Part shown: positions 5,700-62,944 of the stretch, piece by piece | Numbering within the stretch: the stretch's first letter is position 1 | Layout: every line of letters begins with the position of its first letter | From: an uncultured Pseudomonadota bacterium | GTDB taxonomy: Bacteria; Pseudomonadota; Alphaproteobacteria; Rs-D84 | Reading direction: 5' to 3' | DNA: 64,000 nt | Assembly: GCA_902793005.1 (NCBI GenBank) | Contig: CADBBQ010000004.1 | Location: 9,396-73,395 of the forward strand | The notes under the pieces: generated by a model | Database searches by the model: none | Seen by the model: the letters and a program-made list of their open reading frames with translations, nothing else | What the model was told of the DNA's origin: nothing | Position numbers and translations under genes: made by a program

Positions 5700-6120
5700 A
5701 GAGTTCAGTTTTCAAAGTTCAGAGTTCAGTTAATGAATAATTAGACAAAAGCCAAAGGCTTTTGTCATCCTGAGCGTAGTGAGATTACGTTGTGGCACCC
5801 CCACATAAGTAATCGAACGCAGTCGAAAGCGAGCGTTTCGCGAGCGTGGATCCAGGCATATTTGATGCCCTGGCGCATACGCGCCAACAAATTTGTCTTT
5901 GCCAAACCCAGATCCGCGTCATCCGCTATCGCGTCTGACTTTCGACTGGCGGGCCCCGCAAAATGTTGCGCATTTTGTGGGTACCCTGGCTCAGGATGAC
6001 AAAACGCTTTCGCATTTTGTCGGTTTGGCAAAGATTCCGCCCCAAGCGATAGCGTGGGGAGGGGAACCGCGAAGCGGTGGCGGGGGTGGTGGGGCAGTGC
6101 AAACGGGCGGTTTTTTTTAA
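5700..6120. repeat. Intergenic cluster of MITE-like palindromic repeats (families A1/A2) plus a GTTCAAA-type heptamer run
   Basis: 5744-5875 (GACAAAAGCC..GGCTTTTGTCATCCTGAGCGTAGTGAGATTACG...CATATTTGATGCCC) recurs reverse-complemented at about 52797-52930 and 55337-55466. 5896-6033 is bounded by CTTTGCCAAACCC / GGTTTGGCAAAG inverted termini. Confidence 0.85.
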
Positions 6121-6417: not shown

Positions 6418-8673
6418 ATGAAAAAGTCTATATTCGAATCGTTAAAATTTTTCTGTGCCGCATTTTTGTGCGTGATTTTGTCTGCATTTGCAACACCAGC
6501 ACATGCGGATAATTCCTGTCGGAATCTCTTTGACCCGTCAACCGCCGAATTGGGTGATATTAGCAGTGAGACTGGGGTTATATCATCCAGTGTTCAATAC
6601 AGAATTGTGAGTGGCTTTATTCCTGTGACTCCTGGGGAAACATACACCGCCAGTGGTAAAATATATAATACGGGTGCCGGTTTGCATGATGTTATGATTA
6701 TCAGGGCATATTACGATTCAGGACAACGGTTTATTGCCGATTCCCGTACTATGTCTGATGCAACGTTTACAATTCCCAGTGGCGTGAGTTATGTTCGTGT
6801 GGAATATTGGACTGGCGAGAATGGGACCGCTGTAATTGCGCAAAGTCAGTTACAATTCGAACAAGGTTCCACCGCAACGGCGTACACGCCATACAACCCG
6901 CTGTGTGCGACGTGTGACGGTACGATTGTGAATTACACATCTGCAACGGGAACGGTGTCGCAATCCGGCACGCCAACACCAGACAATCCAATTGAACCGA
7001 CTTTTTACAAACAAGGAAATATGATTTTGCGCAAGGTTGGCGATTACGCAGATAGCTACGACGCAACCACAGGTAAGATTACTCGTCGCGTCGGTGTGAA
7101 AGTGTTGGATGGCACGGAATCGTGGTCTTATTATTCTGTACAACAAGGCAATATGTTTAGAATATCGATTGCAGGTGGTGTATTAAATGATAAAGGAGTA
7201 TTAGGAGTGCTTTGCAACTCTTACGAAGTTGTTGTGTCTGGCTCGAGGGCTAATGACACATTGAGTGGTACGACAAAAAACTATGATTTCATAAACAACA
7301 ATTACACAACATTAGAAGATTGGAAAGCCTACATTGCACAACAATATGCTGCTGGCACTCCGGTGACGGTGTGGTATCCGTTGGAAACGGAAACTACCGA
7401 AGATTGGACAGAAACGTCTTACTGTGAAACGCCAATCAAAATCGCGACAACGAAATATAATGAGTCTGCGTTTGGGCCGTTGAATACGGCGTTGGCAAAT
7501 GCGATTAGTGTTGTGGATTCGGTCGTGTCAAACACGATTACCCAGGCGGCGAGCATTGCGACTTTGCAGGCACAAAAACAAACGCGTCCAGCGAATGACA
7601 CTTGCCCGGCTTATAAACAATGTTTGTTGGTCGAGGACGAGCAAGGGGTTCCGCACTGGTACGAAATCACCGACCCGTTCCGCGATTTCGTCGCACCAAT
7701 TATTGCGAATAACGTCGCCCCCGCCAGCACCACGAACTCCGTCGGTTATACCCAATTGGAATATATCGAAAGTGATGGAAATTCTTTGATAGACACAGGA
7801 ATTGTTTTTAATGAAGGTGCTTTAAAATTTAAAGCAAACATTATGTTTAGATCTAATGGCGGCGTTGAACAAGAACTTATAGGCAATTATATTGCTGCAA
7901 ATCGTGCAAGTTTTGTTGCGGGAATATATTCCACAAATAAAGTTTTTGTGTATGGTAATGGTGGCAATGTTAATACAGAAGCTGTTTTAAATGAGTGGCA
8001 AACTTTTATTGGCGAAGGTGATTCTAGTGGCAATGTTACTATGATTTATAATAATCAAACAAAGATTGCGACGAGAAAATCTTTTTATAATGATACAAAC
8101 ATTGTGTTATTTGCTGGCGGTTCTGGAATGTTCAATCCGGCAAAATCCGCAATAAGATTAAACAAAATAGCTTTGTGGAGAAATGACACCTTGGTTCGTG
8201 ACTTTGTTCCAGTAAAACGCAACAGTGACGGTGCGATTGGGATGTATGACACCGTGACGAAAACTTTCTTTGCGAACGCAGGCACGGGTACATTTACCGC
8301 GGGACCCGTCGTTGCGAATACCGATGTTCCGGCGAACGGGATGTGGACCGCGACATGGGCGGCCGACGCAACGACAGGTGTCACCGCCGGCACTATCACC
8401 GGCGAGGGGTTGTGTAACGGGGTCACGGGAACAGAGAGCACAGCCGCGACCAGTACACAAACATCATCCGCCAATTGGTCAGTCGATGGCGCAAATTGTT
8501 GGTGCAAAACAACCGCGATTGACGACGGTGATGATACAACAATAGTGGATGGCGTGTGGGTGTTCTACTACGCGCGCAGTTCGGCCGCCGATTGTGCGCT
8601 CAACTGTGCGTACGCCTGCGCGGCCCGCGTCCGTGATAACGCGTCGTTTCGGTCAGCATTGTTCGGAGATTAA
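6418..8673 (+). CDS. Large secreted lectin/tail-fibre-like protein carrying a C-terminal DGR variable-repeat-like segment (remote DGR target candidate)
   Basis: 751 aa. Signal peptide ending PAHA. The central YTQLEYIESDGNSLIDTG jelly-roll-like region is an attribution from memory. The C-terminus WVFYYARSSAADCALNCAYACAARVRDNASFRSALFGD aligns codon for codon with the TR at 55749-55880. Confidence 0.85.
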   Translation: MKKSIFESLKFFCAAFLCVILSAFATPAHADNSCRNLFDPSTAELGDISSETGVISSSVQYRIVSGFIPVTPGETYTASGKIYNTGAGLHDVMIIRAYYDSGQRFIADSRTMSDATFTIPSGVSYVRVEYWTGENGTAVIAQSQLQFEQGSTATAYTPYNPLCATCDGTIVNYTSATGTVSQSGTPTPDNPIEPTFYKQGNMILRKVGDYADSYDATTGKITRRVGVKVLDGTESWSYYSVQQGNMFRISIAGGVLNDKGVLGVLCNSYEVVVSGSRANDTLSGTTKNYDFINNNYTTLEDWKAYIAQQYAAGTPVTVWYPLETETTEDWTETSYCETPIKIATTKYNESAFGPLNTALANAISVVDSVVSNTITQAASIATLQAQKQTRPANDTCPAYKQCLLVEDEQGVPHWYEITDPFRDFVAPIIANNVAPASTTNSVGYTQLEYIESDGNSLIDTGIVFNEGALKFKANIMFRSNGGVEQELIGNYIAANRASFVAGIYSTNKVFVYGNGGNVNTEAVLNEWQTFIGEGDSSGNVTMIYNNQTKIATRKSFYNDTNIVLFAGGSGMFNPAKSAIRLNKIALWRNDTLVRDFVPVKRNSDGAIGMYDTVTKTFFANAGTGTFTAGPVVANTDVPANGMWTATWAADATTGVTAGTITGEGLCNGVTGTESTAATSTQTSSANWSVDGANCWCKTTAIDDGDDTTIVDGVWVFYYARSSAADCALNCAYACAARVRDNASFRSALFGD
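8557..8670 (+). repeat. VR3: variable-repeat-like segment matching the TR
   Basis: Over the 78-nt core 8566-8643 there are 16 differences from the TR, all at TR adenines. The flanks diverge at non-A positions (TGGGTG vs TGGGTC; TCGTTTCGGTCAGCA vs GGCTTTCGGGCTGCG). Confidence 0.75.
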
Positions 8674-8679
8674 TGCGTG

Positions 8680-9500
8680 CCCAACCCCGGCCCGCTTACG
8701 CTGACGCTACAGCGGGGCCACCCCTTCCCACAACGGAGTGTGGTGTGTGTCTGTGCGGCGCGCCCGTGGGAAGGGAATGCAACAAATGCCAAACCCGACA
8801 AAATGCGAAAGCGTTTTGTCATCCTGAGCGAAGTCGAAAGTGAGTCACCAACTGTGACGAACGCGGATCTGGGTTTGGCAAAGATAGAGAACTGCCCCAC
8901 CACCTTCGGTGGTCCCCCCCTTCTTTTTGTGCTGGCGCACAGAAAAGACGGGGAATGTCCGGGGGAGAAATTTTACCCCCGCCACCACCTCCGGTGGTCC
9001 CCCTCCCCACGGGGGCGGAATCACCACCCGTCGCCAAAGACTATGGGTGGCAGGCCCCCCCGGTGGGCGCGGAACAGAAAAAGCCCAGGATTCAAGGTTT
9101 ATCCTCTATTCCCGTTCGGGGTGAACCTTGAATTCTGGACTTGGAATCGGGAAAGGAAAAGTTCAGGCGGGAAAAGTTCAGGCGCTGTTCGGGTTTGCAC
9201 CGAATTCAGTTCCCTAAAACACACAAACGGCTTTGGCAAATTGTTTGGAACAGCGTAAAAAAATCCCCAGATGGGGATTTTTTATTTTGGCGACGCCGTT
9301 TCACTTTGTCGCCGTGCACAACTACCTCCCCCTCGCGCGCTGACGCTTACTCGGGTACTCCTTCTTTCATAAAGAAGGAGAATGTCCGGTGGAATACCCA
9401 CCCCGTCTTTCAGGCACCCCCCGGTGGGCGGAGAATCAAATTACCCCGTCGCCTACGGCGCCACCCCTTCTTTGTGAAAGAAGGGGACGGTGCGAGAACG
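8680..9500. repeat. Intergenic cluster of palindromic repeats (A2 element 8786-8883; CCTTCTTTCATAAAGAAGG-type hairpins)
   Basis: The same elements recur at 52440-52900 and 55240-55540 in both orientations. ORFs called across this region are repeat read-through. Confidence 0.85.
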
Positions 9501-10194: not shown

Positions 10195-10350
10195 ATGGCG
10201 ATTTTGCATTTGCTACATCGCCAGGCACAACTACCCCGTCTTGCGACTTTGTCGCAATCCACCCCTTCTTTCATAAAGAAGGGGAATGTCCAGAACGTGG
10301 CGGTAAAAAAAATCCCGATAAATTTATCGGGATTTTTTTCGTGTTTTGCA
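10195..10350. repeat. Palindromic repeat copies downstream of rpsA
   Basis: CCACCCCTTCTTTCATAAAGAAGGGGAATGTCC hairpin and the ATCCCGATAAATTTATCGGGAT hairpin (also present at about 105-135). Confidence 0.7.
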
Positions 10351-10356
10351 AGAGGT

Positions 10357-12063
10357 TTATTTCTTGCTGTTTTCAATGGCAGCGCCCAAGATGTCGCCCA
10401 AGACAGAACCAGAGTCAGCCTCGTTCGCGAATTCTTTGACCGCTTGTTTTTCCAATGTCACTTGCAAGTGACGGATGGACAATTTAACCGTGTTATCTTC
10501 GACAGATACAACCGATGCCTCGACAGTGTCGCCAACATTGTATTTGGATGTATCTTGTTCGGATTTAACACGTGACAGGTCCGTGCGACGGATAACACCG
10601 CGCGCATCGCCCGCCAATTTCACAATCAATTCGTCCGGTGTGATTTCGGAAACCGTGCCCGATACGACCGCACCTTTCTTGATTGCGATGTTATTGTTTT
10701 CCGCACTTTCAGTCAATTGTTTAATGCCCAATGTGACACGTTCTTTGTCCGGATTGATGTCCAAAATTTTCGCAGTCACTTCTTGGCCACGAACGAATTT
10801 TTTCAATTCTTCTTCGTCCAATTTGTTCCAAGACAAATCAGAGATATGAACCATACCGTCCAAATCAGGTGTCAATGCAATGAACAAACCGAATTCAGTT
10901 GTGTTCTTGATTGGACCCGTTACAACATCGCCAACATTGTGTGTTTCAGCAAATTGCTTCCACGGATTTGGTTGCAATTGTTTATAGCCCAATGAAATAC
11001 GACGTTTTTCTTGGTCAATGTCCAAAACCACAACATTAACATCTTGGCCAACGGTCAAAACCTTGCTGGGGTGGATGTTTTTGTTTGTCCATGACAATTC
11101 AGACATATGGACCAGGCCCTCGATATTATTGCCTAAATCGATAAATGCGCCGTAATCGGTGATGGATGCAACGCGGCCGGAAACGGTGTCGCCAACATTA
11201 AATGCGCGACTGGCTGTTTCCCATGGGTCGTCTTCTAATTGTTTTGCACCCAATGAAATACGATGAGATTCTGGGTCGAATTGGATAACTTTGACCTTGA
11301 TTTTATCGCCAACTTTGACCAATTCACGTGGGTGATTGACGCGTTTCCACGACAAGTCTGTCACGTGCAATAAACCATCAATTCCGCCCAAATCAACAAA
11401 GACACCGTAATCGGTAATGTTTTTGACCGTACCTTCCAGAACTGCGCCCAGGGTGATGTTTTTCATCGCCTCTTTTTGTTGGGCGGCAATTGTGTCAGAT
11501 TGAATTGCACGACGGGAAACAATCGCGTTTGTGCGCAATGCGTCCATTTTCAAAACACGGAATTTGTCGGTCAAACCAATCATAGATTTCGCATCGCGAA
11601 CAGGTTTGTGGTCAATTTGAGATGACGGCATAAATGCAAATACGCCATTGATGTCAACGGTATAACCACCGCGGACAACATCGATAATTGTACCGGTTGG
11701 GTCTGTGCCTTCGGCAACAATTTTTTCCAAATCTTTCCAGGCTTTCTCGGCACGAGCCTTGGCATAAGACAAGACGGCGGTGCCTTCGCGGGATTCGTAT
11801 CTTTCAACGAAAACGTCGATGATGTCACCAACCTTTGGCACAGATGCGCCGAATTCTTTTAATGGAACGCGGCCCTCGGATTTCAGGCCCACATCAACCA
11901 AAACGAAATCGCCACGGATGTCTTTGACCGTGCCCTTGGTTGCGAAACCTTGCAAAGTTTCTTGTGAACCATAATTTTTATCAAACATAGCAACGAAATC
12001 TTCGTTTGCCACCGGATTAAATAAACCTTTGGATAAATCTTTCATATTTTTAGAATTAAACAA
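10357..12063 (-). CDS. rpsA: 30S ribosomal protein S1
   Basis: 568 aa with six S1/OB repeats (recurrent G..V.G.V......G.FVD.. pattern). Confidence 0.95.
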   Translation of the reverse strand: MFNSKNMKDLSKGLFNPVANEDFVAMFDKNYGSQETLQGFATKGTVKDIRGDFVLVDVGLKSEGRVPLKEFGASVPKVGDIIDVFVERYESREGTAVLSYAKARAEKAWKDLEKIVAEGTDPTGTIIDVVRGGYTVDINGVFAFMPSSQIDHKPVRDAKSMIGLTDKFRVLKMDALRTNAIVSRRAIQSDTIAAQQKEAMKNITLGAVLEGTVKNITDYGVFVDLGGIDGLLHVTDLSWKRVNHPRELVKVGDKIKVKVIQFDPESHRISLGAKQLEDDPWETASRAFNVGDTVSGRVASITDYGAFIDLGNNIEGLVHMSELSWTNKNIHPSKVLTVGQDVNVVVLDIDQEKRRISLGYKQLQPNPWKQFAETHNVGDVVTGPIKNTTEFGLFIALTPDLDGMVHISDLSWNKLDEEELKKFVRGQEVTAKILDINPDKERVTLGIKQLTESAENNNIAIKKGAVVSGTVSEITPDELIVKLAGDARGVIRRTDLSRVKSEQDTSKYNVGDTVEASVVSVEDNTVKLSIRHLQVTLEKQAVKEFANEADSGSVLGDILGAAIENSKK

Positions 12064-12093
12064 AGTTTGCCATTAAAAAATCGCAGGGCGATT

Positions 12094-12128
12094 TTCCAAA
12101 GTTCAAAGTTCAAAGTTCAAAGTTCAAT
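12094..12128. repeat. Heptamer tandem repeat (CAAAGTT)n
   Basis: CCAAAGTTCAAAGTTCAAAGTTCAAAGTTCAA. The same unit (either strand) recurs at about 5700-5730, 55646-55680, 56096-56112 and 56266-56295. Confidence 0.85.
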
Positions 12129-12355
12129 TTTTGTGTGCAACTTTGTTGCACTGCATTATTTGTACTTTGCACTTTGCAAATTGCACTTTAACAAATGTGC
12201 CGGGCACATTTGTAAGGACTTGTGGGGGTCATCGGATGATTTACGCGCCCACCCGCGAAAATCGAACCCATTTTATAGTAAGATTTTGAAAAAAGCAAGA
12301 AAAACATTGAAAAATTAGCAAAATATGATTTACTGAAATTGTGAAGGAGCCCAAA

Positions 12356-13009
12356 ATGCATTATTATGATATTAAATATCCTTATTTACAGTACGAGTAT
12401 ACAGATGGAGTTATGTGCTCTGTGCCGCCGAAAATGCTGGCATCTGTTTATAAACAGCATTATGGGAAAAAGCCAAAAACTTTCTTTGATTGTGGTGCGG
12501 CAATCGGAGTTGTTGTAAAATTGGCAATGGATTATGATATGGACGCACGCGGAATTGATATACGTGATTATTTTGCAAGCTTTGCATTTCGTCACCCGCT
12601 ATTTTCTGGTCGGCCATTTGATATCGAACAAGGCGACACACGCAAGGGTGTTGCAAAAAAAGATTTATTAAGATTGCGAGAGCAGGGGCGGATTCAAATT
12701 AAATCTATTTTAGATTGTAAACCGATTAAGGCAGATTTGGTTTATTGTAATGGTGTCCTTACATATTTTGACGAAGCGACTTTGCCGTCGGTTCTGGCAA
12801 AATTCCAAAATGTAAATATGGTATGTGCAATTCATAATACAATCGAAGATTATGTGGCGGCTAAAAAAATGGGACAAGAATTAGGAACCTGTCAGGAATT
12901 AAAAACTGTTAAACCAAATGATTGGTGGATTGATACGTTTGCGCAAAATGGATTTGATGCGAAGTTTAACCATTGGCTGCGTTGTTTTGTCGCCGTACCA
13001 CAACGGTAA
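12356..13009 (+). CDS. Putative class I SAM-dependent methyltransferase
   Basis: AAGGAG RBS then ATG at 12356. Motif-I-like FFDCGAAIGVVV followed by an acidic residue (ARGIDI). Confidence 0.55.
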   Translation: MHYYDIKYPYLQYEYTDGVMCSVPPKMLASVYKQHYGKKPKTFFDCGAAIGVVVKLAMDYDMDARGIDIRDYFASFAFRHPLFSGRPFDIEQGDTRKGVAKKDLLRLREQGRIQIKSILDCKPIKADLVYCNGVLTYFDEATLPSVLAKFQNVNMVCAIHNTIEDYVAAKKMGQELGTCQELKTVKPNDWWIDTFAQNGFDAKFNHWLRCFVAVPQR

Positions 13010-13011
13010 AA

Positions 13012-13485
13012 TTATTTATCAGATTTTTTTATTTCCATCGTGTCTAATAACGTGTCCAGTTTGCGCAGGGAACTGTTTTGGCAACCGCGGCCACGCCAGG
13101 ATAAAATTTCTGTGCCGGTTTTTTGTTCTACGATGGATACATTAAAATTCCACCACCAAAATCCATTAAACATACACCAAATGGGACGGAAAATTTCACT
13201 GCGTTCACGGACGCGAACGGAATATTTTGTGCCAGATGGAATTTGATATGTTTCCAGGTCAAAATCATTTGAATCGTCGGCGGTATCATGTGTTTTTATT
13301 AATGCGCCGGTGCGGATGTTGTATCCGCGGTTTTGCATAGCAACCTTGATAGAACGTTTCATTGAATAACCGCCAACGGGAACATAAATTTTTTGTGATG
13401 TGTCCAATGAATTTGGTTTGACATAAACACTGTTGCAGGCGGCAAGTGGCAAAATTATCGATAAAATGATGATAGTGCGAAACAT
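13012..13485 (-). CDS. Lipoprotein, hypothetical
   Basis: 157 aa. Signal peptide with lipobox LPLAAC. Confidence 0.6.
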   Translation of the reverse strand: MFRTIIILSIILPLAACNSVYVKPNSLDTSQKIYVPVGGYSMKRSIKVAMQNRGYNIRTGALIKTHDTADDSNDFDLETYQIPSGTKYSVRVRERSEIFRPIWCMFNGFWWWNFNVSIVEQKTGTEILSWRGRGCQNSSLRKLDTLLDTMEIKKSDK

Positions 13486-13590
13486 TGTGTTTATTTTCCT
13501 TTTGCTTTTTACTATAAATCATAATTTTTGTATCGCAATCTAAAAATTCATTGATTTTTGCAGTGTTGTTCATATAATGTAAGTGTTTTG

Positions 13591-13667
13591 GCACCCGTGG
13601 CTCAACTGGATAAAGCACCACCCTCCGAAGGTGGGGATTGCGCGTTCGAATCGCGCCGGGTGCGCCA
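13591..13667 (+). tRNA. tRNA-Arg (anticodon CCG)
   Basis: Hand-folded cloverleaf: acceptor GCACCCG/CGGGTGC, anticodon stem CCACC/GGTGG with loop CTCCGAA, T-arm GCGCG-TTCGAAT-CGCGC, encoded CCA. Confidence 0.9.
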
Positions 13668-13698
13668 TAAAAAACACCGCATTGATTGGCGGTATTTT

Positions 13699-15096
13699 TT
13701 ATTTATCCCACTTGTCACCGATGACGCTTTCGGCGACCAACGGCACGGACAGTTTTGTTATGTTTTCCATTGTTGATTTTATTTGGGCGGCAAATGTGTC
13801 GGCCGCGGACGCGTCGCATTCAAATATGATTTCGTCGTGAACCTGGAGAATCATTTTGATTTTGTCCGCGTTCGGGCGCACGATGTCATTTGCAATTTTT
13901 ACCATTGCGTAACGCATTAGGTCAGCCTCGAACCCTTGGATTGGGGCGTTGATTGCGGCGCGGATTGCATATTGGCGTAGCCTTGAATTTTTTATTTCCG
14001 GTAATTCAATGCGGCGGCCCCACGGGGTATAAACGTATGCGTTGTCGATTGCAAACTTTTTTGTGTCATCAATGTATTTTTTAATCTCGGGCAGGCCCGC
14101 CATATATGCGTCGATGATTTTTTTTGCCTCGTCGCGCGCGACCCCCAACTGTGCCGCCAATCCAAATGATGAAATGCCGTAAATGATTGAAAAGTTTACG
14201 GTCTTGGCCGCGCGACGTTGTGATTTTGAAACCGGTGTATCTGCATCAATATTAAATATTTTTCGTGCGGTTTGTTCGTGAATGTCGGCCCCAGAATTAA
14301 ATGTGTCGCAAAATGTTTTTATGTGTGCAACATCCGCCAACAGACGCAATTGAATTTGTGAATAATCAACCGATATCAAAACGCGACCCGCGGGCGCGAC
14401 AAAGCAACGACGGATTTCGGTTCCCAATTCTGTGCGGATGGGGATGTTTTGCAGGTTTGGATCGCGGCTGGAAAGGCGGCCTGTATTTGTTGATGTTTGC
14501 ATATATGTTGTGTGGATGCGTCCGTCGGTGGCAATTTGTTTTGGCAATGCGTCCGCATATGTTCCCGCCAATTTTGATATACTGCGCCAATTCAGGATTT
14601 TTTCAATTATTGGGTGTTCTTCGGCCAGTGCGTTCAGTGCATCCGCATCGGTGGAACGTTTCTTGTTTTCGGGTAATTTCAGTTCGTCAAACAAAACCGT
14701 CCCCAGTTGTTTCGGACTGGCGATATTAAATTCGTGGCCGGCCAAATCCCAGATTTCGCGCTGTAAATTTTCCAGTTGTGCGTGAAACACCGATGATAAA
14801 TTTTGCAGGCCGCCGCGATTAACCAAAACGCCGTTGCGTTCCATATCCACCAAAATTGGCATTAATGGCCGGTCGCACATTTCGTATAAATTTTTTAATT
14901 TTTCGTTTGCGTCTAATTCAGGCCGGAATTTTTCGTATAATGCAAAACAAACAACCGCGTCTTCGCCGGCATAATCGGTTGCGGGCGCGATATCAACCGT
15001 TGCAAATCTGCGATTGGCGTCAGAAACATTTGCCGGAAACAGTGATGCAAACTTTATATTTTCGTGATGTAAATATTTTGATGCCAATTCATCCAA
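13699..15096 (-). CDS. polA: DNA polymerase I, C-terminal polymerase-domain fragment (split gene)
   Basis: 465 aa with family-A motifs (DYSQIQLRLLA, RRAAKTVNFSIIYG, QVHDE). Starts inside a 23-bp tandem duplication. Confidence 0.85.
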   Translation of the reverse strand: MDELASKYLHHENIKFASLFPANVSDANRRFATVDIAPATDYAGEDAVVCFALYEKFRPELDANEKLKNLYEMCDRPLMPILVDMERNGVLVNRGGLQNLSSVFHAQLENLQREIWDLAGHEFNIASPKQLGTVLFDELKLPENKKRSTDADALNALAEEHPIIEKILNWRSISKLAGTYADALPKQIATDGRIHTTYMQTSTNTGRLSSRDPNLQNIPIRTELGTEIRRCFVAPAGRVLISVDYSQIQLRLLADVAHIKTFCDTFNSGADIHEQTARKIFNIDADTPVSKSQRRAAKTVNFSIIYGISSFGLAAQLGVARDEAKKIIDAYMAGLPEIKKYIDDTKKFAIDNAYVYTPWGRRIELPEIKNSRLRQYAIRAAINAPIQGFEADLMRYAMVKIANDIVRPNADKIKMILQVHDEIIFECDASAADTFAAQIKSTMENITKLSVPLVAESVIGDKWDK

Positions 15097-27119: not shown

Positions 27120-27743
27120 ATGAAAGATGTCCCAAACACAGAATACATTACAATTAACAAAGATGGTGTTTTTGTTGGTGGAAAACCTGCAACAAAATAT
27201 CGTGGTGTAGAAATATATGATATAGATTATGTGAAAGAAAAATTTGCATGTATGCAGGACCAAAATCCAGAAATAGAGGAATTTCATATTGGTGCGTTTA
27301 TATACTATGGTAGACATGGACGTCCGGAGGATCCATATTGGAACGTTGATTCACAAAATGCAAATGTATGGTGTCGTGTAAAATTAAAAAATTCGTCGGC
27401 GGTTACTTGGATTTTTTGTGACTGGGTCAATGATGTTGCTCGTTGTGCCTTGGAATGTATGTTTTATTACGTGGGTTCCCACATATATGCACGCTATGGC
27501 ATGAGCAGCGACTGGTTCCGGTTGCAGGTATTGAAGTATGCAAGAATTGATAAGCAAAATACAAAATTGGAAAAATTAGAAAAAGTTGATTTTCGTTCGG
27601 CAGTGTTTGGGTCGAAACAAAATGCATTAACAAATGCGTTAAAAGATACAGATTTATCGCAATTTGTTGGGAAACCTGTGCAATTAAACGGTTATAAAAT
27701 CATTGTTGAAAAAATTGCTGAAACCAAACAAAACAAAAGATAA
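27120..27743 (+). CDS. Single-module paralog of the DGR target family with a decayed (fossil) VR
   Basis: N-terminus MKDVPNTEYITINKDGVFVGGKPATKYRG and WCRVKLKN...WIF...CALEC... are homologous to the modules of 31905..33020. The tail has the shared C-terminal module. Confidence 0.7.
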   Translation: MKDVPNTEYITINKDGVFVGGKPATKYRGVEIYDIDYVKEKFACMQDQNPEIEEFHIGAFIYYGRHGRPEDPYWNVDSQNANVWCRVKLKNSSAVTWIFCDWVNDVARCALECMFYYVGSHIYARYGMSSDWFRLQVLKYARIDKQNTKLEKLEKVDFRSAVFGSKQNALTNALKDTDLSQFVGKPVQLNGYKIIVEKIAETKQNKR

Positions 27744-31904: not shown

Positions 31905-33020
31905 ATGGCGGATATTTCAAATACAGAATATATTACCGTAAATGCCAATGGGATTTTTGTTGGTGGCAAACCTGCAACAACATATCGTGGTGAAGAAATA
32001 AATTTGCCAGACAGCGTGCATAGAGATTTTGCCCACATCCAAACCTTAAATAAAAATGTTGCGGAATTGCATGTGTTGTCATCGGAAACACGTGGCGAAC
32101 GTGCAAAACCGGGTAATCCATCAGGAAAACAGGGTCCAAATACGTGGTGTCGGGTAAAGTTTGAAAACGGTAATTTTGGTGCGTGGGTCTTCTACAACGA
32201 GTACGCTTCGGCCGCCTTTTGTGCGTGCTACTGTGCGGTCGACTGCGCGTACGACGTCCGTAATAGCGCGTCGTTTCGGTCTGTAGTTTTGGGTGAGACA
32301 ATTGATAAAAGTAAAGCAAAACAAAACGTATTAACAAATGCGTTGAAAGATACAAATTTGTCGCAATGTGTGCCAGATATTCCAAATACAGCATATATTA
32401 CCATAAAATACTATTGGTATTATTTTTATGTTAATCATGATGACCGTTGTTGGGTTATTGGCGCTTTTGTTGGTGGGCATCATGTAGAAAAATATCATGG
32501 TCAGACAATATATGAGTATAACGCTGACGTACGAGATTATAACGCTGAAGCACGAGATGCATACACACGCCTGTTTAATAATAGTGAGTATAATTTTAGC
32601 GATATATATCCGCGCATTGCCAGTGGTTCTATTACAGAAGTTCATGTTGGTGCATTTGAAACGCGTGGCGAATATGCAAAGCCAGGCAATCCGGATGGTG
32701 TGTTTGGTCCAAATGCATGGTGTCGTGTGAAATATAAAAATGGAGATTTAGGTCCGTGGGTCTTTGTTAACGACTGTGGTTCGGCCGCCAATTGTGCGAG
32801 AAGGTGTGTGTTTCTCTGCGCGAGCAGTATCAGAGAATCTGCATCGTTTCGGGCCGCGTTGTGTGGGCCAATTGAAAAATCGAATGCGAATCTTGCTATG
32901 ACACAAAACGCATTAACAAATGTGTTAAAAGATACAGATTTGTCTAAATTTGTTGGCACGCATAAAATCGGTGCTTATGAAATTGTTGTCCGTAAATCTG
33001 GGCAGAATACAAGGGGGTAA
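31905..33020 (+). CDS. Two-module DGR target-family protein (tandem fusion, each module ending in a VR-like segment)
   Basis: 371 aa. Module 1 is MADISNTEYITV...WCRVKFENGNFGAWVF...FRSVVLGE. Module 2 is PDIPNTAYITI...WCRVKYKNGDLGPWVF...FRAALCGP. Ends with the shared C-terminal module. Confidence 0.8.
   Translation: MADISNTEYITVNANGIFVGGKPATTYRGEEINLPDSVHRDFAHIQTLNKNVAELHVLSSETRGERAKPGNPSGKQGPNTWCRVKFENGNFGAWVFYNEYASAAFCACYCAVDCAYDVRNSASFRSVVLGETIDKSKAKQNVLTNALKDTNLSQCVPDIPNTAYITIKYYWYYFYVNHDDRCWVIGAFVGGHHVEKYHGQTIYEYNADVRDYNAEARDAYTRLFNNSEYNFSDIYPRIASGSITEVHVGAFETRGEYAKPGNPDGVFGPNAWCRVKYKNGDLGPWVFVNDCGSAANCARRCVFLCASSIRESASFRAALCGPIEKSNANLAMTQNALTNVLKDTDLSKFVGTHKIGAYEIVVRKSGQNTRG
32184..32297 (+). 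repeat. VR4: VR-like segment, near A-only relationship to the TR
   Basis: 15 substitutions at TR adenines and 2 at non-A positions within the core (ACG to GAG, AGT to GCT). Its 3' flank GCGTCGTTTCGGTC is shared with VR3, not with the TR. Confidence 0.7.
32757..32867 (+). repeat. VR5: decayed VR-like segment
   Basis: Aligns to the TR through the invariant islands TGGGTCTT, TCGGCCGCCAATTGTGCG, TGCGCG and TTTCGGG, but has many non-adenine mismatches. Confidence 0.6.
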
Positions 33021-51859: not shown

Positions 51860-52975
51860 AGTCCGTCCCCTTCTTTATGAAAGAAGGGGTGGCATCCGAA
51901 GGATGACGGGGTAATTGTGCCGGGCGATGTAGTGAAACGAAATCGCCATAAAAAGGTTTTAAATCACAATTACCTCCCCCTACGCCGATAAATCGGCTTC
52001 GGGTACTCCTTCTTTCATAAAGAAGGAGACGGCGCATAAATGCGCCGGGGAAAAAGAGGAAAACATAGAGTTCAAAATTCAAGGTTTTGGTCCCATTCCC
52101 GTTCGGGGCTGGAACCTTGGACGTTGAACTTTGGGATAAACAAAGTTAGGTCGTGTGTCCCCCCGGGATGCCCCGAAATCCAACTCCCATTGAAAATAAT
52201 GGCTGTTCCCGGGGAGTGTGACAAAAACACGGTAGTGTTTTTGTCAAAGCAAATAACAAAGTACAAAGTACAAAGTACAAAGTACAAAGTACAAAGTACA
52301 AAGTGCAAAGTACAAATGATGCCGTGTGGCAACGCCACACACATATGGATATTCTCCTTCTTTATGAAAGAAGGAGTACCCGAGTAAGCGTCAGCGCGCG
52401 AGGGGGAGGTAGTTGTGAAAAGGTCTAAACTGCTGGTGTGGTTGTGATTATAGAGAAAAATATTATCACAACTACCCCACCGTCTTCGACGGTCCCCCCC
52501 TTCTTTCATAAAGAAGGGGAATGTCCGAGAGAAGATGGCGGTCCCCCCTTCTTTGGGAAAGAAGGGAATATCCGAGAGGGGCGGAATGTTTGCCAAACCG
52601 ACAAAACGCGTTTGCGTCTTGTCATCCTGAGCGAAGTCGAAAGTGAGTCACCAACGGTGACGAACGTGGATCTGGGTTTGGCAAAGACAAGGAACTGCCC
52701 CGTCACTCAACCGCGTTGCGGTTTCGTGCCACCCCTTCTTTTTACCCTGCGGGTAGAAAAGACGGGGAATGTCCGAGAGGGTGGCGCGGTGGCGCCGGGC
52801 ATCAAATATGCCTGGATCCGCGCTCGCGGAACGCTCGCTTTCGACTGCGTTCGATTACTTATGTGGGGTTGCCACAACGTAATCTCACTACGCTCAGGAT
52901 GACAAAAAATGTTGCAACATTTTTTGTCTGAATAAAAAAAAGAGAGAGAAACAAAATAAAAAAAAAGGATAGGAA
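51860..52975. repeat. Dense array of palindromic repeats and (CAAAGTA)n upstream of the DGR target gene
   Basis: Contains CCTTCTTT(C/A)(A/T)(T/G)AAAGAAGG hairpins (about 51868, 52006, 52353, 52497, 52545), heptamer run 52255-52316, A2 element 52600-52688 and A1 element (reverse orientation) 52797-52930. Confidence 0.85.
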
Positions 52976-52977
52976 AG

Positions 52978-55011
52978 ATGAAAAAGGTAAGTTTATTTAC
53001 GATTTTATTGTTATCTGGGGTGGGGGCATCGCCGGCGATGGCGGCGTTGACGTCCGCGGATGACATCCTGTCTGAATTGATGATTTATGGTGCGGTGTAT
53101 GGTGATACGGTTGCGGGCGGCCTGGGCGTGTCATATCGTTATCACGGTGATGACGTCGCGACCGAATATTTACAACATACCGACGGCACGGTGTATCACA
53201 AATCATACACATCGGGCCTGGGCACCGCCGGGGACAAGGGCGATTGGCAAAATCATTGGGAAACATATTTCCCACGTCGTGCTTTGTCCGACGGTACGCA
53301 ATTATCCGACGGCGTGACCGTGCACGGAATCTCGCAATGCACGCGCATAGGGGGCACTTTCGCCGTCCCAAATTACGATATGACCGACCCATATACCACC
53401 GTGACCGAGGATGGCGAACGCCAGTGTTGGTGCAAATTAACGCATGTACGCGAGGGCACGAGCGCCCCTGCAAACCTGGATGCGTTGGGTTATTCGGTTG
53501 GGGCCTCGTCTTGGGTCTTCCACAACACGTCCGGTTCGGCCGCCAATTGTGCGTACTACTGTGCGAACGGCTGCGCGAGCGCCGTCCGTCCTAACGCGGG
53601 CTTTCGGGCTGCGGTTTTTGGTGGGGGCGCCTTGGGGCATGCGACCCCGGCGGATATGTGTGGGCAAAATTTAGCGAACGGAAAATTATATGATTACCAG
53701 GTCCCGCGTGTGGCAAAACTGGCCGCCGGGACATATACCGCATCCATTGCCGCCGCGGACGGCGGCAAATGGATGTTGCGGTTACGCGGCGTCGCAGACA
53801 ATACCGCCGTCACGGGCGAAGCCCTGACGGCGGCGCTGGCGTCGAGTGGTTTGGCACTCGACGACAGCGAAATTTCGAATCGCGACGGGTGGGTTTTTGG
53901 CAATGCGGCCGACGCCAATGCTTTGACTTTTACAATTAGGTCCGGCGAATACATCGTCGAAATCGCGAAACAGGACGCCACCGGCGCACAGGATTTAATG
54001 CTGGAACACGGGGATGTGGCGAATGCCTATGTCGCGCCAACGCCGTGTATCCGCATCGCCGGGACGAAAATCGCGGCCGCGGCGTTCGAACGCGCCGATG
54101 CGGTGCGCGCGCGGTTGGTTAATGTCGTTGACCACGTCGTCAGCCAAACTATTACCCAGGCCGGCCACATCGCCACATTACAAACGCAAAAACAAACCCG
54201 CCCGGCCGACGACCCGACGGACGCAAATAACGCCGAAAATTGCCCCGAGGGGAAAAAATGCTTGCTGGTGACGGACGAAAACAAAACGCCGCACTGGTAC
54301 GAAATTTTTGACCCGATACACGAGTGGTATGATGCGTGGGTTACCGCCGGTAAACCCGCCGTCAAAGTGGAAATGGACGGCAGTAACTATTCATTTTATA
54401 ACGCGTTCTATCGCGGGGACAAAACGTGGCGCAAAACATATATCGACGGAACGACATCAACATATGACCGTCCGTTTGACCACGCGACGCGCTGCACAAA
54501 CCCCAGTTATAACACCGAAACGCAAAAAGCTCGTCCGTGCTATTCCGAGGTTGGAATGTTTAAAACACTGGGCGATGGCGAATGGGCCGAGGTTTATACG
54601 TCTGGCGACGGCACGAATTCACCGGTTGGTGTGGTGTATGGCATATCCAAGTGCACATCGGTCGCGGGACCAACAAATTACACCGGTGGTGGAACGCTAC
54701 TGTCGCAATTGTCCGCCGCGGACCAGGCAAAGTGGGCGGAATTGCCGGCTTTGCACGGTCAACCAGAACGCGAAGGATACGACAGCGAGAGTTTCAAACA
54801 ATGCTGGTGCAAGGTGGATGGCGTTGGTGTCCCGGGTGCGGATGGAAACCCTGCAAACGGAAGTATCTATCCGGTTGGGGCCTCGTCTTGGGTCTTCGGC
54901 CGCACGGGCGGTTCGGCCGCCATTTGTGCGAGCTACTGTGCGCGCGACTGCGCGTCCAACGTCCGTGTTTACGCGGGCTTTCGGGCTGCGGTTTTTGGTG
55001 GGCTGGAATGA
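52978..55011 (+). CDS. Secreted DGR variable protein with two lectin-like VR-bearing modules
   Basis: 677 aa. Signal peptide ...SPAMA. Module ends are ...CWCKLTHV...VGASSWVFHNTSGSAANCAYYCANGCASAVRPNAGFRAAVFGG (internal) and ...CWCKVDGV...VGASSWVFGRTGGSAAICASYCARDCASNVRVYAGFRAAVFGGLE (C-terminal). Confidence 0.92.
   Translation: MKKVSLFTILLLSGVGASPAMAALTSADDILSELMIYGAVYGDTVAGGLGVSYRYHGDDVATEYLQHTDGTVYHKSYTSGLGTAGDKGDWQNHWETYFPRRALSDGTQLSDGVTVHGISQCTRIGGTFAVPNYDMTDPYTTVTEDGERQCWCKLTHVREGTSAPANLDALGYSVGASSWVFHNTSGSAANCAYYCANGCASAVRPNAGFRAAVFGGGALGHATPADMCGQNLANGKLYDYQVPRVAKLAAGTYTASIAAADGGKWMLRLRGVADNTAVTGEALTAALASSGLALDDSEISNRDGWVFGNAADANALTFTIRSGEYIVEIAKQDATGAQDLMLEHGDVANAYVAPTPCIRIAGTKIAAAAFERADAVRARLVNVVDHVVSQTITQAGHIATLQTQKQTRPADDPTDANNAENCPEGKKCLLVTDENKTPHWYEIFDPIHEWYDAWVTAGKPAVKVEMDGSNYSFYNAFYRGDKTWRKTYIDGTTSTYDRPFDHATRCTNPSYNTETQKARPCYSEVGMFKTLGDGEWAEVYTSGDGTNSPVGVVYGISKCTSVAGPTNYTGGGTLLSQLSAADQAKWAELPALHGQPEREGYDSESFKQCWCKVDGVGVPGADGNPANGSIYPVGASSWVFGRTGGSAAICASYCARDCASNVRVYAGFRAAVFGGLE
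53495..53625 (+). repeat. VR1 (internal variable repeat)
   Basis: 131 nt collinear with the TR. 13 substitutions, all at TR adenines. No other mismatch. Confidence 0.92.
54872..55004 (+). repeat. VR2 (C-terminal variable repeat)
   Basis: 133 nt collinear with the TR. 18 substitutions, all at TR adenines. No other mismatch. Ends 7 nt before the stop codon. Confidence 0.93.
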
Positions 55012-55021
55012 TAAACCTTTT

Positions 55022-55054
55022 CGCATCAAAAACCCTGTGCGGGTTTTTGATGCG
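55022..55054 (+). other. 14-bp-stem hairpin 18 nt downstream of VR2
   Basis: CGCATCAAAAACCC-TGTGC-GGGTTTTTGATGCG, a perfect inverted repeat. Confidence 0.8.
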
Positions 55055-55059
55055 GGTGG

Positions 55060-55745
55060 ACGACCCAACCCTGGTTGCACCAATGGTGCAACCACCCCTT
55101 CCCTGGCCAGGGAAGGGGGAACTGAGGCGTAAATGGGGTCCCACGGAATTGGGAAATTCCGTGGGCGAAAATGGGGGGTGCGGGGGCGACTCCCCCGCCG
55201 CGCGCAGCGCGGATTTGCCAAACCGGACAAAAGCCAATGGCTTTTGTCATCCTGAGCGAAGTCGAAAGTGAGTCACCAACGGTGACGAACGCGGATCTGG
55301 GTTTGGCAAGGGCAAATTTGTTGGCGCGGCGGCGCCGGGCATCAAATATGCCTGGATCCACGCTCGCGAAACGCTCGCTTTCGACTGCGTTCGATTACTT
55401 ATGGGGCGGTGCCTCAACGTAATCTCACTACGCTCAGGATGACAAAAACGCGGATGCGTTTTTGTTAACAAATTACCCCGTCATCCTTCGGATGCCACCC
55501 CTTCTTTGGGAAAGAAGGGGACGGTGCGAGAGCCGGATGCACGATTTTTCAGACTAAAACACGGTAGTGTTTTTGTTAAAGTACAAAGTACAAAGTACAA
55601 AGTACAAATAATGCCGTGTGGCAACGCCACACACATATGGGACATTAATTGAACTTTGAACTTTGAAAACTGAACTCTGAAAAATGGTGTATCACTGGTA
55701 AAACCCGTGGTTCAGGTGTCAGTTGCTGGGTCGGATTCGGCGTGT
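55060..55745. repeat. Palindromic repeat and heptamer array between the target gene and the TR
   Basis: A2 element 55225-55312, A1 element (reverse) 55337-55466, CCTTCTTTGGGAAAGAAGG hairpin about 55496, (CAAAGTA)n 55578-55608, (AACTTTG)n 55646-55680. Confidence 0.85.
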
Positions 55746-55748
55746 TGG

Positions 55749-55880
55749 CGGTTGGGGCCTCGTCTTGGGTCTTCAACAACACGAACAGTTCGGCCGCCAA
55801 TTGTGCGAACAACTGTGCGAACAACTGCGCGAACAACGTCCGTAATAACGCGGGCTTTCGGGCTGCGGTTTTTGGTGGGC
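55749..55880 (+). repeat. DGR template repeat (TR)
   Basis: CGGTTGGGGCCTCGTCTTGGGTCTTC AAC AAC ACG AAC AGT TCGGCCGCC AAT TGTGCG AAC AAC TGTGCG AAC AAC TGCGCG AAC AAC GTCCGT AAT AAC GCGGGCTTTCGGGCTGCGGTTTTTGGTGGGC. The 26 adenines are confined to 14 codons. All invariant blocks are adenine-free. Confidence 0.92.
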
Positions 55881-55884
55881 TCCT

Positions 55885-56700
55885 GGGAATCGGTGTTATG
55901 ACTTTATCCCAGATAAAGTTTGGCCAACCTGTGGGGACAAAGGATGCAACAAAGTACAAAGTACAAAGTACAAATAATGTTGAACTTTGGATGAAATCCT
56001 TTTCAGATGATGCCGACAAAAAACACGGTAGTGTTTTTGTCAAAGTACAAAGTACAAATAACAAAGTACAAAGTACAAAGTACAAAGTACAAATAATGTT
56101 GAACTTTGAACTTTGGATTGGTGGATTCTGTTTCGAATTGTGCCGATTTATCAAGGCGGAGTGATATTACCGCATTGCAAACAAAAACGCGTTCGCGTTT
56201 TTATCAAAGTACAAAGTACAAATAACAAAGTACAAATAGTGTGTCGGCATAGCCGACGGCAACAATTGAACTTTGAACTTTGAACTTTGAAAACTGATAT
56301 GTTTGCTTTGAAATAAATACACAGGGGGGTGTTGGGTCAGTAATTCTGTTCTGTATCGTGGTGACCACCCGACGCCCCAAAGGGCTATGGGTGGCAGGCC
56401 TCCCTTCGCCCCAATAGGGCTATGGGTGGCAGGCCTCCCTTCGCCCCAAATACAAAAACGCGGACGCGTTTTTGTCATTGCGAGCGAACGAGTTCAATTT
56501 GCGTGCAACGCAAAGCCGAACGAGTGAGACGTGGCAATCCAGTCAATAATAAAGTCCAGCCTGCGGCTGGTGCTTTAATAGACCTGGATCCCCACGTGTC
56601 GCAAAACTGCGAATGCACGACATCGCAGGTTTTGCTCCCTCGGGATGACACAACGTTGAAAACGTTGTGTCTGAAATTTGAATTAACAATGGAGAGATAA
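55885..56700. repeat. Heptamer runs and palindromic or tandem repeats between the TR and the accessory ORF
   Basis: (CAAAGTA)n at 55958-55985, 56040-56093 and 56205-56235. (AACTTTG)n at 56096-56112 and 56266-56295. A roughly 35-bp unit CCCCAA(A/T)AGGGCTATGGGTGGCAGGCCTCCCTTCG occurs twice at about 56377-56447. Confidence 0.8.
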
Positions 56701-56704
56701 AAAA

Positions 56705-57031
56705 ATGACTATTGAAGAAATTGCCCAGGTGCGGGCGGTGGATTGTCCGGCGTTTTCTGTGTTCGCCAAGGACAAATTGCCTTTGCCGGGTGTTAAAAAA
56801 CGCTTGGATGAAATTTTAAATAAAGAAATCTTGGTCGTCGATTTCCGAATTACAAAATCAAAAAAACGCGAGGGGTCCGAGTGCCTGCAAATCCAATTCG
56901 TGTGCGATGATGTTATCTGTGTTGCATTTACTGGGTCGTCAGTTTTGGCGACCCAAATTCAATCTGTACGGGAAAAAATTCCTTTTCGAACGTGCGTTAC
57001 AAAAATCGATAAATATTATTCTTTTTCGTGA
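56705..57031 (+). CDS. DGR accessory protein candidate (in the Avd position; not recognisably Avd by eye)
   Basis: 108-aa ORF ending 24 nt before the RT ATG. GGAGAG RBS-like sequence upstream. Confidence 0.65.
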   Translation: MTIEEIAQVRAVDCPAFSVFAKDKLPLPGVKKRLDEILNKEILVVDFRITKSKKREGSECLQIQFVCDDVICVAFTGSSVLATQIQSVREKIPFRTCVTKIDKYYSFS

Positions 57032-57055
57032 TTTTTTCGTTGGTGGTTGCTGAAT

Positions 57056-58081
57056 ATGAAAACCTATAATAATTTATGGGATGAATTTATATCGCCCGAA
57101 AATTTCCAGTTGGCTGCGCGCAAGGCAATTAAAAGCAAAAAATCTAAATCCGCCGTCGCAAAATTTATGGCGAATAAAGATGCGTTGCTGGATAAACTGC
57201 GCCGGGATATTATGTCGGGCGTGTTCCGCACGTCCCCATATGTCGTCAAAACAATTTTCGAACCAAAACAGCGTCAAATTTATGTCTTGCCGTTGTATCC
57301 TGACCATATTTTGCACCACGCGCTGGTTAATGTGCTGGGGCCGATTTGGTTGAAAATGTTCGTCGCCGATTCGTTCGCGTGTATCCCGGGACGCGGCCTG
57401 CATTCGGCATCTACGCGCGCAATGGAATTGGTGCGGCGAAATAAATATGTGCTGCAATGTGATATCAGAAAATTTTACCCCAGTATTCGGCACGATGTGA
57501 TGAAACGAATTCTGCGCCGGAAAATTTCAGACAGGCGGATTCTGCGTTTGCTTGATTGCGTCGTCGATTCTGTCGAGGGGGATAAAAATGTCCCGATTGG
57601 AAATTTAACCAGTCAATGGTTCGGTAATGTGTTCTTGAACGAGTTAGACCATTTCGTCAAAGAAAAACTGCAATGGCGCGAATATATCCGGTATTGCGAT
57701 GATTTTTGCTTGTTCGGAAATGACAAGGCGGCGTTGCGCGCGGCGTTGGCCCAAATCCAAGATTTCGTCCATCAGGAATTGCAATTGGAATTTTCCAAGT
57801 CTGTGATTTATCCCGTTTGGCGCGGATTCGATTTTATCGGGTATCGACATTTCCGCGGATTTATCTTGTTGCGGAAAACAACCGCACGACGCATCAAGAA
57901 AAATGTCATAAATATGGCACGATACCACGATTTCGGCGAACACAGTGTAGGGCAATTGGCCGCATATCACGGTTGGGCCAAGTGGGCAAATACATATCGG
58001 TTTAAACGAAAAATTCAACGCGCGGTGGGTCATTACGGGGGCGATGCCGCAAAATTCTTGCGTAAAAATTTCTGGTTTTAA
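57056..58081 (+). CDS. DGR-type reverse transcriptase
   Basis: RT motifs 1-7: KPKQRQIYVLP, (I)PGRGLHSA, QCDIRKFYPSI, the DGR-diagnostic motif 4 PIGNLTSQWFGNVFLNELDHF, catalytic RYCDDFCLF and FIGYRH. Start taken at the ATG (MKTYNNLW). Confidence 0.93.
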   Translation: MKTYNNLWDEFISPENFQLAARKAIKSKKSKSAVAKFMANKDALLDKLRRDIMSGVFRTSPYVVKTIFEPKQRQIYVLPLYPDHILHHALVNVLGPIWLKMFVADSFACIPGRGLHSASTRAMELVRRNKYVLQCDIRKFYPSIRHDVMKRILRRKISDRRILRLLDCVVDSVEGDKNVPIGNLTSQWFGNVFLNELDHFVKEKLQWREYIRYCDDFCLFGNDKAALRAALAQIQDFVHQELQLEFSKSVIYPVWRGFDFIGYRHFRGFILLRKTTARRIKKNVINMARYHDFGEHSVGQLAAYHGWAKWANTYRFKRKIQRAVGHYGGDAAKFLRKNFWF

Positions 58082-58107
58082 AAAAAATCGCATATGCGAT
58101 TTTTTTT
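58082..58107. terminator. Bidirectional terminator between the RT and the LOG gene
   Basis: A-run, ATCGCATATGCGAT palindrome, T-run. Confidence 0.75.
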
Positions 58108-58678: not shown

Positions 58679-58729
58679 AGATTATTTTCCTTTATTTTTC
58701 GAAATTATATCATAAAATGAATATGTGGC

Positions 58730-61535: not shown

Positions 61536-61542
61536 ATTTGAA

Positions 61543-62923: not shown

Positions 62924-62944
62924 ATTTTTATTATAATGCGTCTT

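Follow-up and report, generated by a model that had tools for sequence, protein, structure and literature searches.

The 64,000-nucleotide (nt) stretch of DNA analysed here, referred to as the window, comes from an uncultured alphaproteobacterium (assembly GCA_902793005.1, contig CADBBQ010000004.1, positions 9,396 to 73,395 of the forward strand) and carries a diversity-generating retroelement (DGR). The DGR cassette comprises a reverse transcriptase (RT), an accessory open reading frame (ORF), a template repeat (TR) and an adjoining target gene with two variable repeats, VR1 and VR2. A third repeat, VR3, lies 47 kb from the TR in the gene for a 751-aa protein and is the subject of this analysis. 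The features concerned are as follows.

6418-8673, + strand: gene for the 751-aa protein (from the ORF list), with a signal-peptide-like N-terminus and VR3 as its C-terminus
8557-8643, + strand: VR3, TR-homologous tract, including the core with adenine-only differences (8563-8643)
8644-8670, + strand: 3' flank of VR3, diverged; it agrees with the TR 3' end at 16/27 positions and encodes S-F-R-S-A-L-F-G-D
52978-58081, + strand: DGR cassette (677-aa target, TR, 108-aa ORF, RT)
52978-55011, + strand: 677-aa target gene adjoining the TR, holding VR1 and VR2
53495-53625, + strand: VR1, internal in the 677-aa target gene
54872-55004, + strand: VR2, C-terminal in the 677-aa target gene
55749-55881, + strand: TR, with AAC/AAT codons at every variable position
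56705-57031, + strand: accessory ORF of 108 aa, directly upstream of the RT
57047-58081, + strand: DGR RT (Pfam RVT_1, E = 9e-12), with IGNLTSQ and YCDD in its translation

The motifs [LIV]GxxxSQ and YxDD are a hallmark of DGR reverse transcriptases, and the RT of the cassette has both. The match of VR1 and VR2 to the TR runs for about 130 nt, both flanks included, and is broken at TR adenines only; their flanks are identical to those of the TR over 17 nt on the 5' side and about 30 nt on the 3' side.

The core of VR3 and its flanks

Repeat copies were aligned without gaps, anchored on GTTCGGCCGCC. In the 81-nt core of VR3 (8563-8643), 16 of the 26 TR adenines are changed, as against none of the 55 other positions, and the probability that 16 random mismatches would all hit TR adenines is P = 1.6e-10. 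An initial annotation of this DNA had reported 16 differences, all at adenines, within 8566-8643; the alignment bears this out for the 81-nt core, which contains that segment, and also for the invariant islands, with TCGGCCGCC, TGTGCG (twice), TGCGCG and GTCCGT all intact. VR3 shows one of the properties by which non-adjacent targets are recognised (PMC5758913), since its differences within the mutagenised tract, 8563-8643, are A-to-N only; the others are independence of any other DGR and an imperfect TR/VR repeat with a GC-rich start at the 3' end. A degenerate core pattern matches at five places in the window and at none in 100 shuffles of it.

The resemblance ends at the borders of the core. 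On the 5' side, the C-to-G change described earlier is present at position 8562 and is synonymous (GTC to GTG), while TR similarity is absent upstream of 8557. On the 3' side, the last 27 nt of the repeat (TCGTTTCGGTCAGCATTGTTCGGAGAT) agree with those of the TR (GGCTTTCGGGCTGCGGTTTTTGGTGGG) at 16 positions (59%), close to the 60% first estimated: the two share CGCG and, after a 3-nt mismatch, TTTCGG, which is far weaker than the 100% match of VR1 and VR2. The mismatch in this segment, a candidate counterpart of the initiation of mutagenic homing (IMH) site, stands as first described. Its weight as evidence is reduced, since imperfect IMH/IMH* pairs after the A-to-N region are the norm in DGRs (PMC5758913).

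Synonymous sites separate the core from its flank most clearly. Third codon positions that are not adenines differ from the TR at 0 of 27 sites in the core versus 6 of 8 in the 3' flank (Fisher P = 1.7e-5), which argues for a core copied from a TR of this core sequence and against inheritance as a drifting paralogue. Nor is VR3 an assembly artefact, because its exact sequence recurs in eight independent contigs. From these sequence statistics, we conclude that DGR cDNA overwrote the VR3 core, probably in a homing event. VR3, which the ORF at 6418-8673 places at the C-terminus of the 751-aa protein, as previously proposed, appears to be a product of DGR mutagenic retrohoming in a secreted paralogue of the cassette's target protein.

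Two further copies were overlooked by the initial annotation; the first of them, VR4, was found with the degenerate core search.

32184-32296, + strand: VR4, in a 371-aa ORF (31905-33020), differing from the TR at 15 adenine and 2 non-adenine sites
32757-32869, + strand: decayed fifth copy, also in the 371-aa ORF 31905-33020, with many non-adenine differences and a 3' flank that starts TCGTTTCGG

The non-adenine changes of the decayed copy include third positions of former AAC codons, and their abundance makes it an example of a paralogue left unrefreshed and, as such, an internal control for VR3. The 3' junction, GCG followed by TCGTTTCGG, is common to VR3, VR4 and this copy. More generally, the exit from TR-like sequence falls between GCG and TCGTTTCG in these three and in the VRs of two other species (L001/L003 and L002). 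The first 11 nt past GCG, TCGTTTCGGTC, are identical in VR3, VR4 and the L002 VR, while across their 3' flanks VR3 and VR4 differ at 7 of 27 positions. L001 and L002 were considered as examples of remote VRs with mismatched flanks and were dropped, as their own TRs are unknown. Elsewhere in the window, a segment of ORF 27120-27743 (27339-27464) resembles the VR module weakly by tblastn (E = 0.004); the 5' part of this ORF is akin to the 371-aa gene family, and the ORF may be another, strongly decayed member.

Strain comparison of adjacent and remote repeats

The 751-aa protein was found on eight contigs of the European Nucleotide Archive (ENA) from eight samples, with a V171G variant on two. 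Over 2.5-15 kb, their identity to the window is 99.6-100%, and none of the contigs shows a difference in VR3, which is identical in nine assemblies when the window is counted. The 677-aa protein, on the other side of this comparison, exists as two alleles (P0122 and P0123) that differ at 20 residues, every one of them inside VR1 or VR2. At the nucleotide level, VR1 and VR2 of the alternative allele each depart from the window at 15 nt; apart from one T-to-C change, every difference is at a TR adenine. Over as much as 8.2 kb outside the repeats, the contigs with this allele show only 1-2 single-nucleotide polymorphisms (SNPs) and, in L015, a single indel of a 14-nt repeat unit. The exceptional T-to-C change lies in the alternative VR2 (L014, L015 and L016; window position 54924), where AAT TGT became ATC TGT. 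It accounts for 1 of 15 substitutions, and non-adenine changes thus occur at a low rate in an actively rewritten VR2.

The alternative VR1/VR2 allele is present in ERZ28612982, ERZ27280566 and ERZ920178, and the same samples hold an unchanged VR3 (L009, L006 and L007). VR4 is equally constant: its protein is identical on the eight contigs read (nine are listed) and is unchanged in ERZ27280566 and ERZ28612982, two of the samples with the alternative VR1/VR2 allele. In L005, from a Joint Genome Institute (JGI) metagenome, the VR4 DNA is the same as that of the window, though the flanking genes diverge by 3-4% there and by 11-18% farther off. The adjacent repeats vary further in L004, a strain from a JGI metagenome that is about 1% diverged from the window and has a third VR2 allele. 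The 5' flank of the L004 TR carries a G-to-T SNP that is mirrored in the L004 VR2, indicating that flanks are transferred in homing to adjacent repeats.

With two VR1/VR2 alleles and the third VR2 allele of L004, the cassette shows ongoing diversification. At VR3, adenine-site variation was absent from the eight contigs and eight samples, three of which have the alternative VR1/VR2 allele; the comparison is built on consensus assemblies, in which minor or low-frequency variants are not displayed. The comparison had been set beforehand, with an invariant VR3 alongside varying VR1 and VR2 named in advance as the mark of an orphan, and this was the outcome. Three options had been offered for VR3: targeting in trans with a 3' homing determinant unlike that of VR1 and VR2, service by a second TR outside the window, or a recently orphaned repeat. 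An orphaned or cold repeat is favoured, as VR3 is fixed while VR1 and VR2 vary, and current trans-targeting by the window TR is not supported.

Template repeats and the present state of VR3

Related cassettes, with RTs 72-84% identical to that of the window, were compared to identify the type of TR that wrote VR3. In L018, L019, L021, L029, L030 and L032, the TR core differs from that of the window at 1-4 of 87 nt, and in the related strains L004 and L034 it is identical. The core is non-coding and is conserved across species at the nucleotide level. TR flanks drift between related cassettes, mostly at synonymous-type positions, and the codon after GCG is GGC in the window, L018 and L019, TCG in L021 and L029, and GAC in L030 and L031. 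Adjacent VRs follow their own TR across both flanks in the window, L018 and L021. For example, L018 and L019 have identical RT proteins and TRs that differ at three positions, and all three differences are mirrored in the adjacent VR of L018.

VR3 and the window TR are alike in GCCGCC and GTCCGT, where related TRs have GCG/GCT and GTCCGC/GTTCGC. Because TCG-type TRs have GCT and GTCCGC, the known TRs of this type are not the donor of VR3. The TR of L030, which has VR3's TGGGTGTTC, was examined as a second TR and rejected, because its core disagrees with VR3 at three non-adenine positions and its flank is of the GAC type. As the source of the VR3 core, ectopic gene conversion from VR1 or VR2 is not favoured, since uninterrupted identity between the copies is at most 11 nt.

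In another species (L033), the 751-aa protein has an orthologue (P0017) whose repeat likewise carries TGGGTGTTC at its 5' edge. This repeat differs from VR3 at many adenine sites; compared with the window TR core, it has just two non-adenine differences. In its 3' flank, synonymous differences from VR3 have reached saturation, and 20 of 22 positions match the L021-type TR flank. Remote orthologous repeats in other species may, to judge from such matches, agree with the flank of their own TR.

Some related loci have a different arrangement of targets. L034 (GCA_045131685.1, JBGURE010000006.1; window 52347-64000) is 97.5% identical to the window and has the same TR core and 3' flank; its TR 5' flank differs at 5 of 17 nt. 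Between the repeat mosaics of L034, the 677-aa target gene is missing entirely, leaving a cassette without an adjacent target. In L030 and L031, no target was seen within 6 kb upstream of the TR. L002 (DFKW01000002.1, Alphaproteobacteria UBA3635) has a VR2-type gene with a TCG-type 3' flank that sits between the S1 gene (window 10285-14189) and a segment matching window 62204-63996, a position which indicates that the genome has been rearranged around VR-bearing genes relative to the window.

The best explanation, with a probability of roughly 55%, is that VR3 is a true remote target of a DGR and has gone cold, meaning either quiescent or orphaned. At some point in the past, adenine-mutagenised cDNA, templated by a TR with a core identical to that of the window TR, would have overwritten the 81-nt core at 8563-8643. 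The flanks would have been left unwritten as ordinary diverged coding sequence of the family-typical 'ASFRSA(L/V)FG' type, and VR3 would keep one fixed allele while the adjacent VR1 and VR2 undergo rewriting. The window TR may have been the last writer, with homology limited to the core; so may an earlier or different TR whose 3' end is of the TCG type. The likely cause of the coldness is that VR3 has neither TR-matching flanks nor a strong downstream hairpin of the kind that follows VR2.

55022-55054, + strand: hairpin with a 14-bp stem (CGCATCAAAAACCC / GGGTTTTTGATGCG), starting 18 nt past the end of VR2

Folded as DNA, the VR2 hairpin has a z-score of -4.4, and 0 of 200 shuffles were equally stable. 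Compared with shuffles in the same way, no similar hairpin was found downstream of VR3 or VR4, and the fold downstream of VR1 is no better than shuffles. With only that of VR2 being significant, hairpin presence is weak evidence. In the Bordetella phage DGR, a 3' IMH and a stem-loop are needed for efficient retrohoming (PMC3240598, PMC12875486). By analogy, the missing equivalents at VR3 suggest that it would be at best a very inefficient target of the window TR. The perfect synonymous conservation of its core indicates that core-limited replacement did happen, either as a rare event from the window TR or from a better-flanked TR.

Several points weigh against a cold VR3. The samples are near-clonal and give only two VR1/VR2 alleles, plus the third VR2 allele of L004, and the contrast between adjacent repeats (2/2 changed) and remote ones (0/2 changed) rests on few independent events. 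Consensus assemblies hide low-frequency variants, and purifying selection could mask continuing mutagenesis. Past rewriting of the core only also implies that mismatched flanks are not an absolute block to homing. Lastly, the cassettes without an adjacent target in close relatives (L034, L030/31) suggest that trans targeting is routine in this lineage.

A possible but rather unlikely alternative is that VR3 is a still-active in-trans target of the window TR that is rewritten more slowly than VR1 and VR2, the present allele being the one fixed in the sampled clone. The cDNA would enter by homology to the invariant core and leave at a 3' junction at or before the step from GCG to TCG, so that the flanks would never be converted. 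Such a process would fit a core that equals the window TR at all 55 non-adenine sites, synonymous ones included, between saturated flanks, and that agrees with the window TR at the sites distinguishing TR types. It would also fit TR cores that are near-invariant across species while their flanks diverge, a pattern that would follow from dispersed targets relying on the core for their common homology, as well as the relatives' cassettes that exist without an adjacent target and the usual imperfection of IMH and IMH* (PMC5758913). Set against this are the unchanged VR3 in eight contigs and VR4 in the eight read (of nine listed) while both VR1 and VR2 turned over, the constancy of VR4 across a 3-4% divergence of flanking genes, and the lack of a significant hairpin at VR3. 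In addition, uninterrupted 3' identity extends only 4 nt (CGCG) past the final TR adenine of the tract (idx 120, 8639), and 8 nt (ATAACGCG, 8636-8643) past the last changed adenine.

A broader and more doubtful version of this idea is that VR3, VR4 and their orthologues are all serviced in trans via the invariant 81-nt core alone. The core would then be a universal donor for dispersed targets with free flanks and would need no TR-matching IMH, in a system that would also use a non-Avd accessory protein of 108 aa and a cysteine-stapled helix scaffold that is not a C-type lectin.

A distinctly improbable alternative is that VR3 and VR4 are served by a second TR outside the window, with its own or a shared RT, that has the same core and ends in ...AACGCGTCGTTTCGGTC. 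The common junction between GCG and TCGTTTCG in VR3, VR4, the decayed copy and the L001 and L002 VRs would be expected of such a TR, TCG-type TR ends do exist in the related cassettes L021 and L029, and the flank of the L033 orthologue fits the L021-type TR flank at 20/22. The repeat mosaic downstream of VR3 is also the one found between VR2 and the TR, which is compatible with a former cassette beside VR3. A TR with a window-type core and a TCGTTTCGGTC end, lost or elsewhere in the genome, would neatly account for both repeats. However, searches with the degenerate core pattern, which covered the window, 185,579 species-representative genomes and JGI metagenomes, found no TR with a VR3-type end; the JGI metagenomes yielded only the GGC-type TR of L004. 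The 64-kb window contains no second TR or RT, and viral contigs scanned with the degenerate core gave no matches. Nothing scored in a protein search with the TR-frame peptide for TR ORFs ending in SFRS, and the many TR-like N-rich ORFs found in an exhaustive representative search included none with the exact NNASFRS end and none with genomic context. Furthermore, the known TCG-type TRs depart from VR3 in the core (GCT, GTCCGC), a single TR would be unable to match the flanks of VR3 and VR4 throughout given their 7/27 differences, and VR3 is static regardless of its writer.

That VR3 is unrelated to the DGR, an ordinary paralogue resembling the TR through protein constraint or chance, would agree with the family-wide retention of scaffold residues (C, A, W, V, R) in the protein, but this is effectively refuted by the adenine-only mismatches (P = 1.6e-10), by the 27/27 non-adenine synonymous positions kept in the core, unlike in the flank, and by the decayed copy, in which protein constraint alone fails to keep such positions.

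Known systems, protein family and neighbouring features

Remote targets have been reported for 45 of 372 surveyed DGRs, with up to seven in the DGR of Treponema denticola (PMC5758913, PMC4891356). Like these, VR3 is tens of kilobases away from both TR and RT, in a gene paralogous to the adjacent target, and has adenine-only differences in its mutagenised tract; the protein whose C-terminus it forms is secreted or at the surface. The host genome is likewise cellular and not obviously that of a phage: the window is chromosomal, encoding GroES/GroEL, ribosomal protein S1, adenylate kinase, EF-Ts, L13/S9 and trigger factor, and its nearest public genomes are metagenome-assembled genomes (MAGs) of uncultured Alphaproteobacteria. 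Unlike in known remote targets, the TR identity of VR3 ends about 4 nt past the last adenine and, on the other side, where the tract begins. The divergence of each flank is about 40%, in contrast to the adjacent VRs of the element, which agree with the TR for about 130 nt, and the population data for VR3 show no turnover.

As in Bordetella phage BPP-1, the 3' end of VR3 is an imperfect copy of the TR 3' end just past the A-to-N region, and a predicted hairpin follows the active C-terminal repeat, here VR2. The IMH and IMH* of BPP-1 are nearly identical, whereas VR3 and the TR share 59% and the 3' ends of the active VRs equal that of the TR; a significant hairpin after VR3 is absent. Inactive DGR loci are common in metagenome surveys, in which 'active' and 'inactive' classes have been distinguished (PMC8144416). 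VR3 resembles the inactive class in combining a historical adenine signature with no detected present-day variation. In contrast to such loci, targets of apparently one element differ within the same population, the adjacent ones being active and the remote ones static. This differential activity among the targets of one element, correlated with flank identity, is the distinctive feature of VR3.

Remote DGR targets are already known, and VR3 adds a member and not a principle. Its value is that of a natural experiment on target recognition, in which two TR-flanked repeats turn over and two core-only repeats stay fixed. If the dependence on flanks holds, this would map cis determinants for a very common DGR lineage of Alphaproteobacteria from gut and rumen. 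The lineage also seems to depart from the Bordetella paradigm in its accessory protein and in the scaffold of its variable protein.

The 751-aa protein has 370 homologues, which form a large family of DGR-target paralogues in MAGs of gut and rumen Alphaproteobacteria. Many homologues share the C-terminal module CWC...WVF...CAxxCAxxCAxxVR..FR..FG, and many have the family-typical ending ASFRSA(V/L)FG. Both the variable module and N-rich TR ORFs are widespread.

8296-8670: variable module, formed by the last 125 aa of the 751-aa protein; further instances of it lie at 53260-53631, 54610-55008 and 32013-32297

A confident AlphaFold2 (AF2) model of the module (pLDDT 85.6) predicts five strands followed by a long C-terminal helix that would carry the variable codons, two per four residues, in the pattern CAxxCAxxCAxxVRxxA. 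Six cysteines are conserved in the module, four of them invariant and two present in at least 90% of sequences. The target proteins had no match in Pfam, NCBIfam or PHROG, and the family profile had no sequence match in the PDB. Foldseek found no PDB match for the module model (best E = 5.5, TM < 0.3) and none in BFVD, and no C-type lectin or immunoglobulin (Ig) domain was recognisable around the VR with Pfam or Foldseek. On the basis of this model, the module may be a DGR variable scaffold that is neither a C-type lectin nor an Ig fold.

The 108-aa accessory ORF is 79-94% identical in six related cassettes, always beside the RT, and is better conserved than the RT itself (72-84% identical). 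It has no Pfam, NCBIfam or PHROG match and is not recognisable as Avd (a PF05635-like four-helix bundle), and a single-sequence structure model of the protein was unusable (pLDDT 37). The L021 cassette has an additional, separate gene of the PF05635 (Avd) family.

Short intergenic repeats (40-190 nt, 80-98% identical) form a mosaic around the 751-aa gene and around the 677-aa gene and TR.

5744-6030, 8787-8961, 9317-9497, 51863-52908, 55216-55684 and 55949-56241: intergenic repeat mosaic

The mosaic includes arrays of an AAAGTAC heptamer and a 35-nt tandem repeat (56373-56450). Indels between samples occur in repeat-mosaic regions, at 8706-8732, 9155-9169 and 52256-52269.

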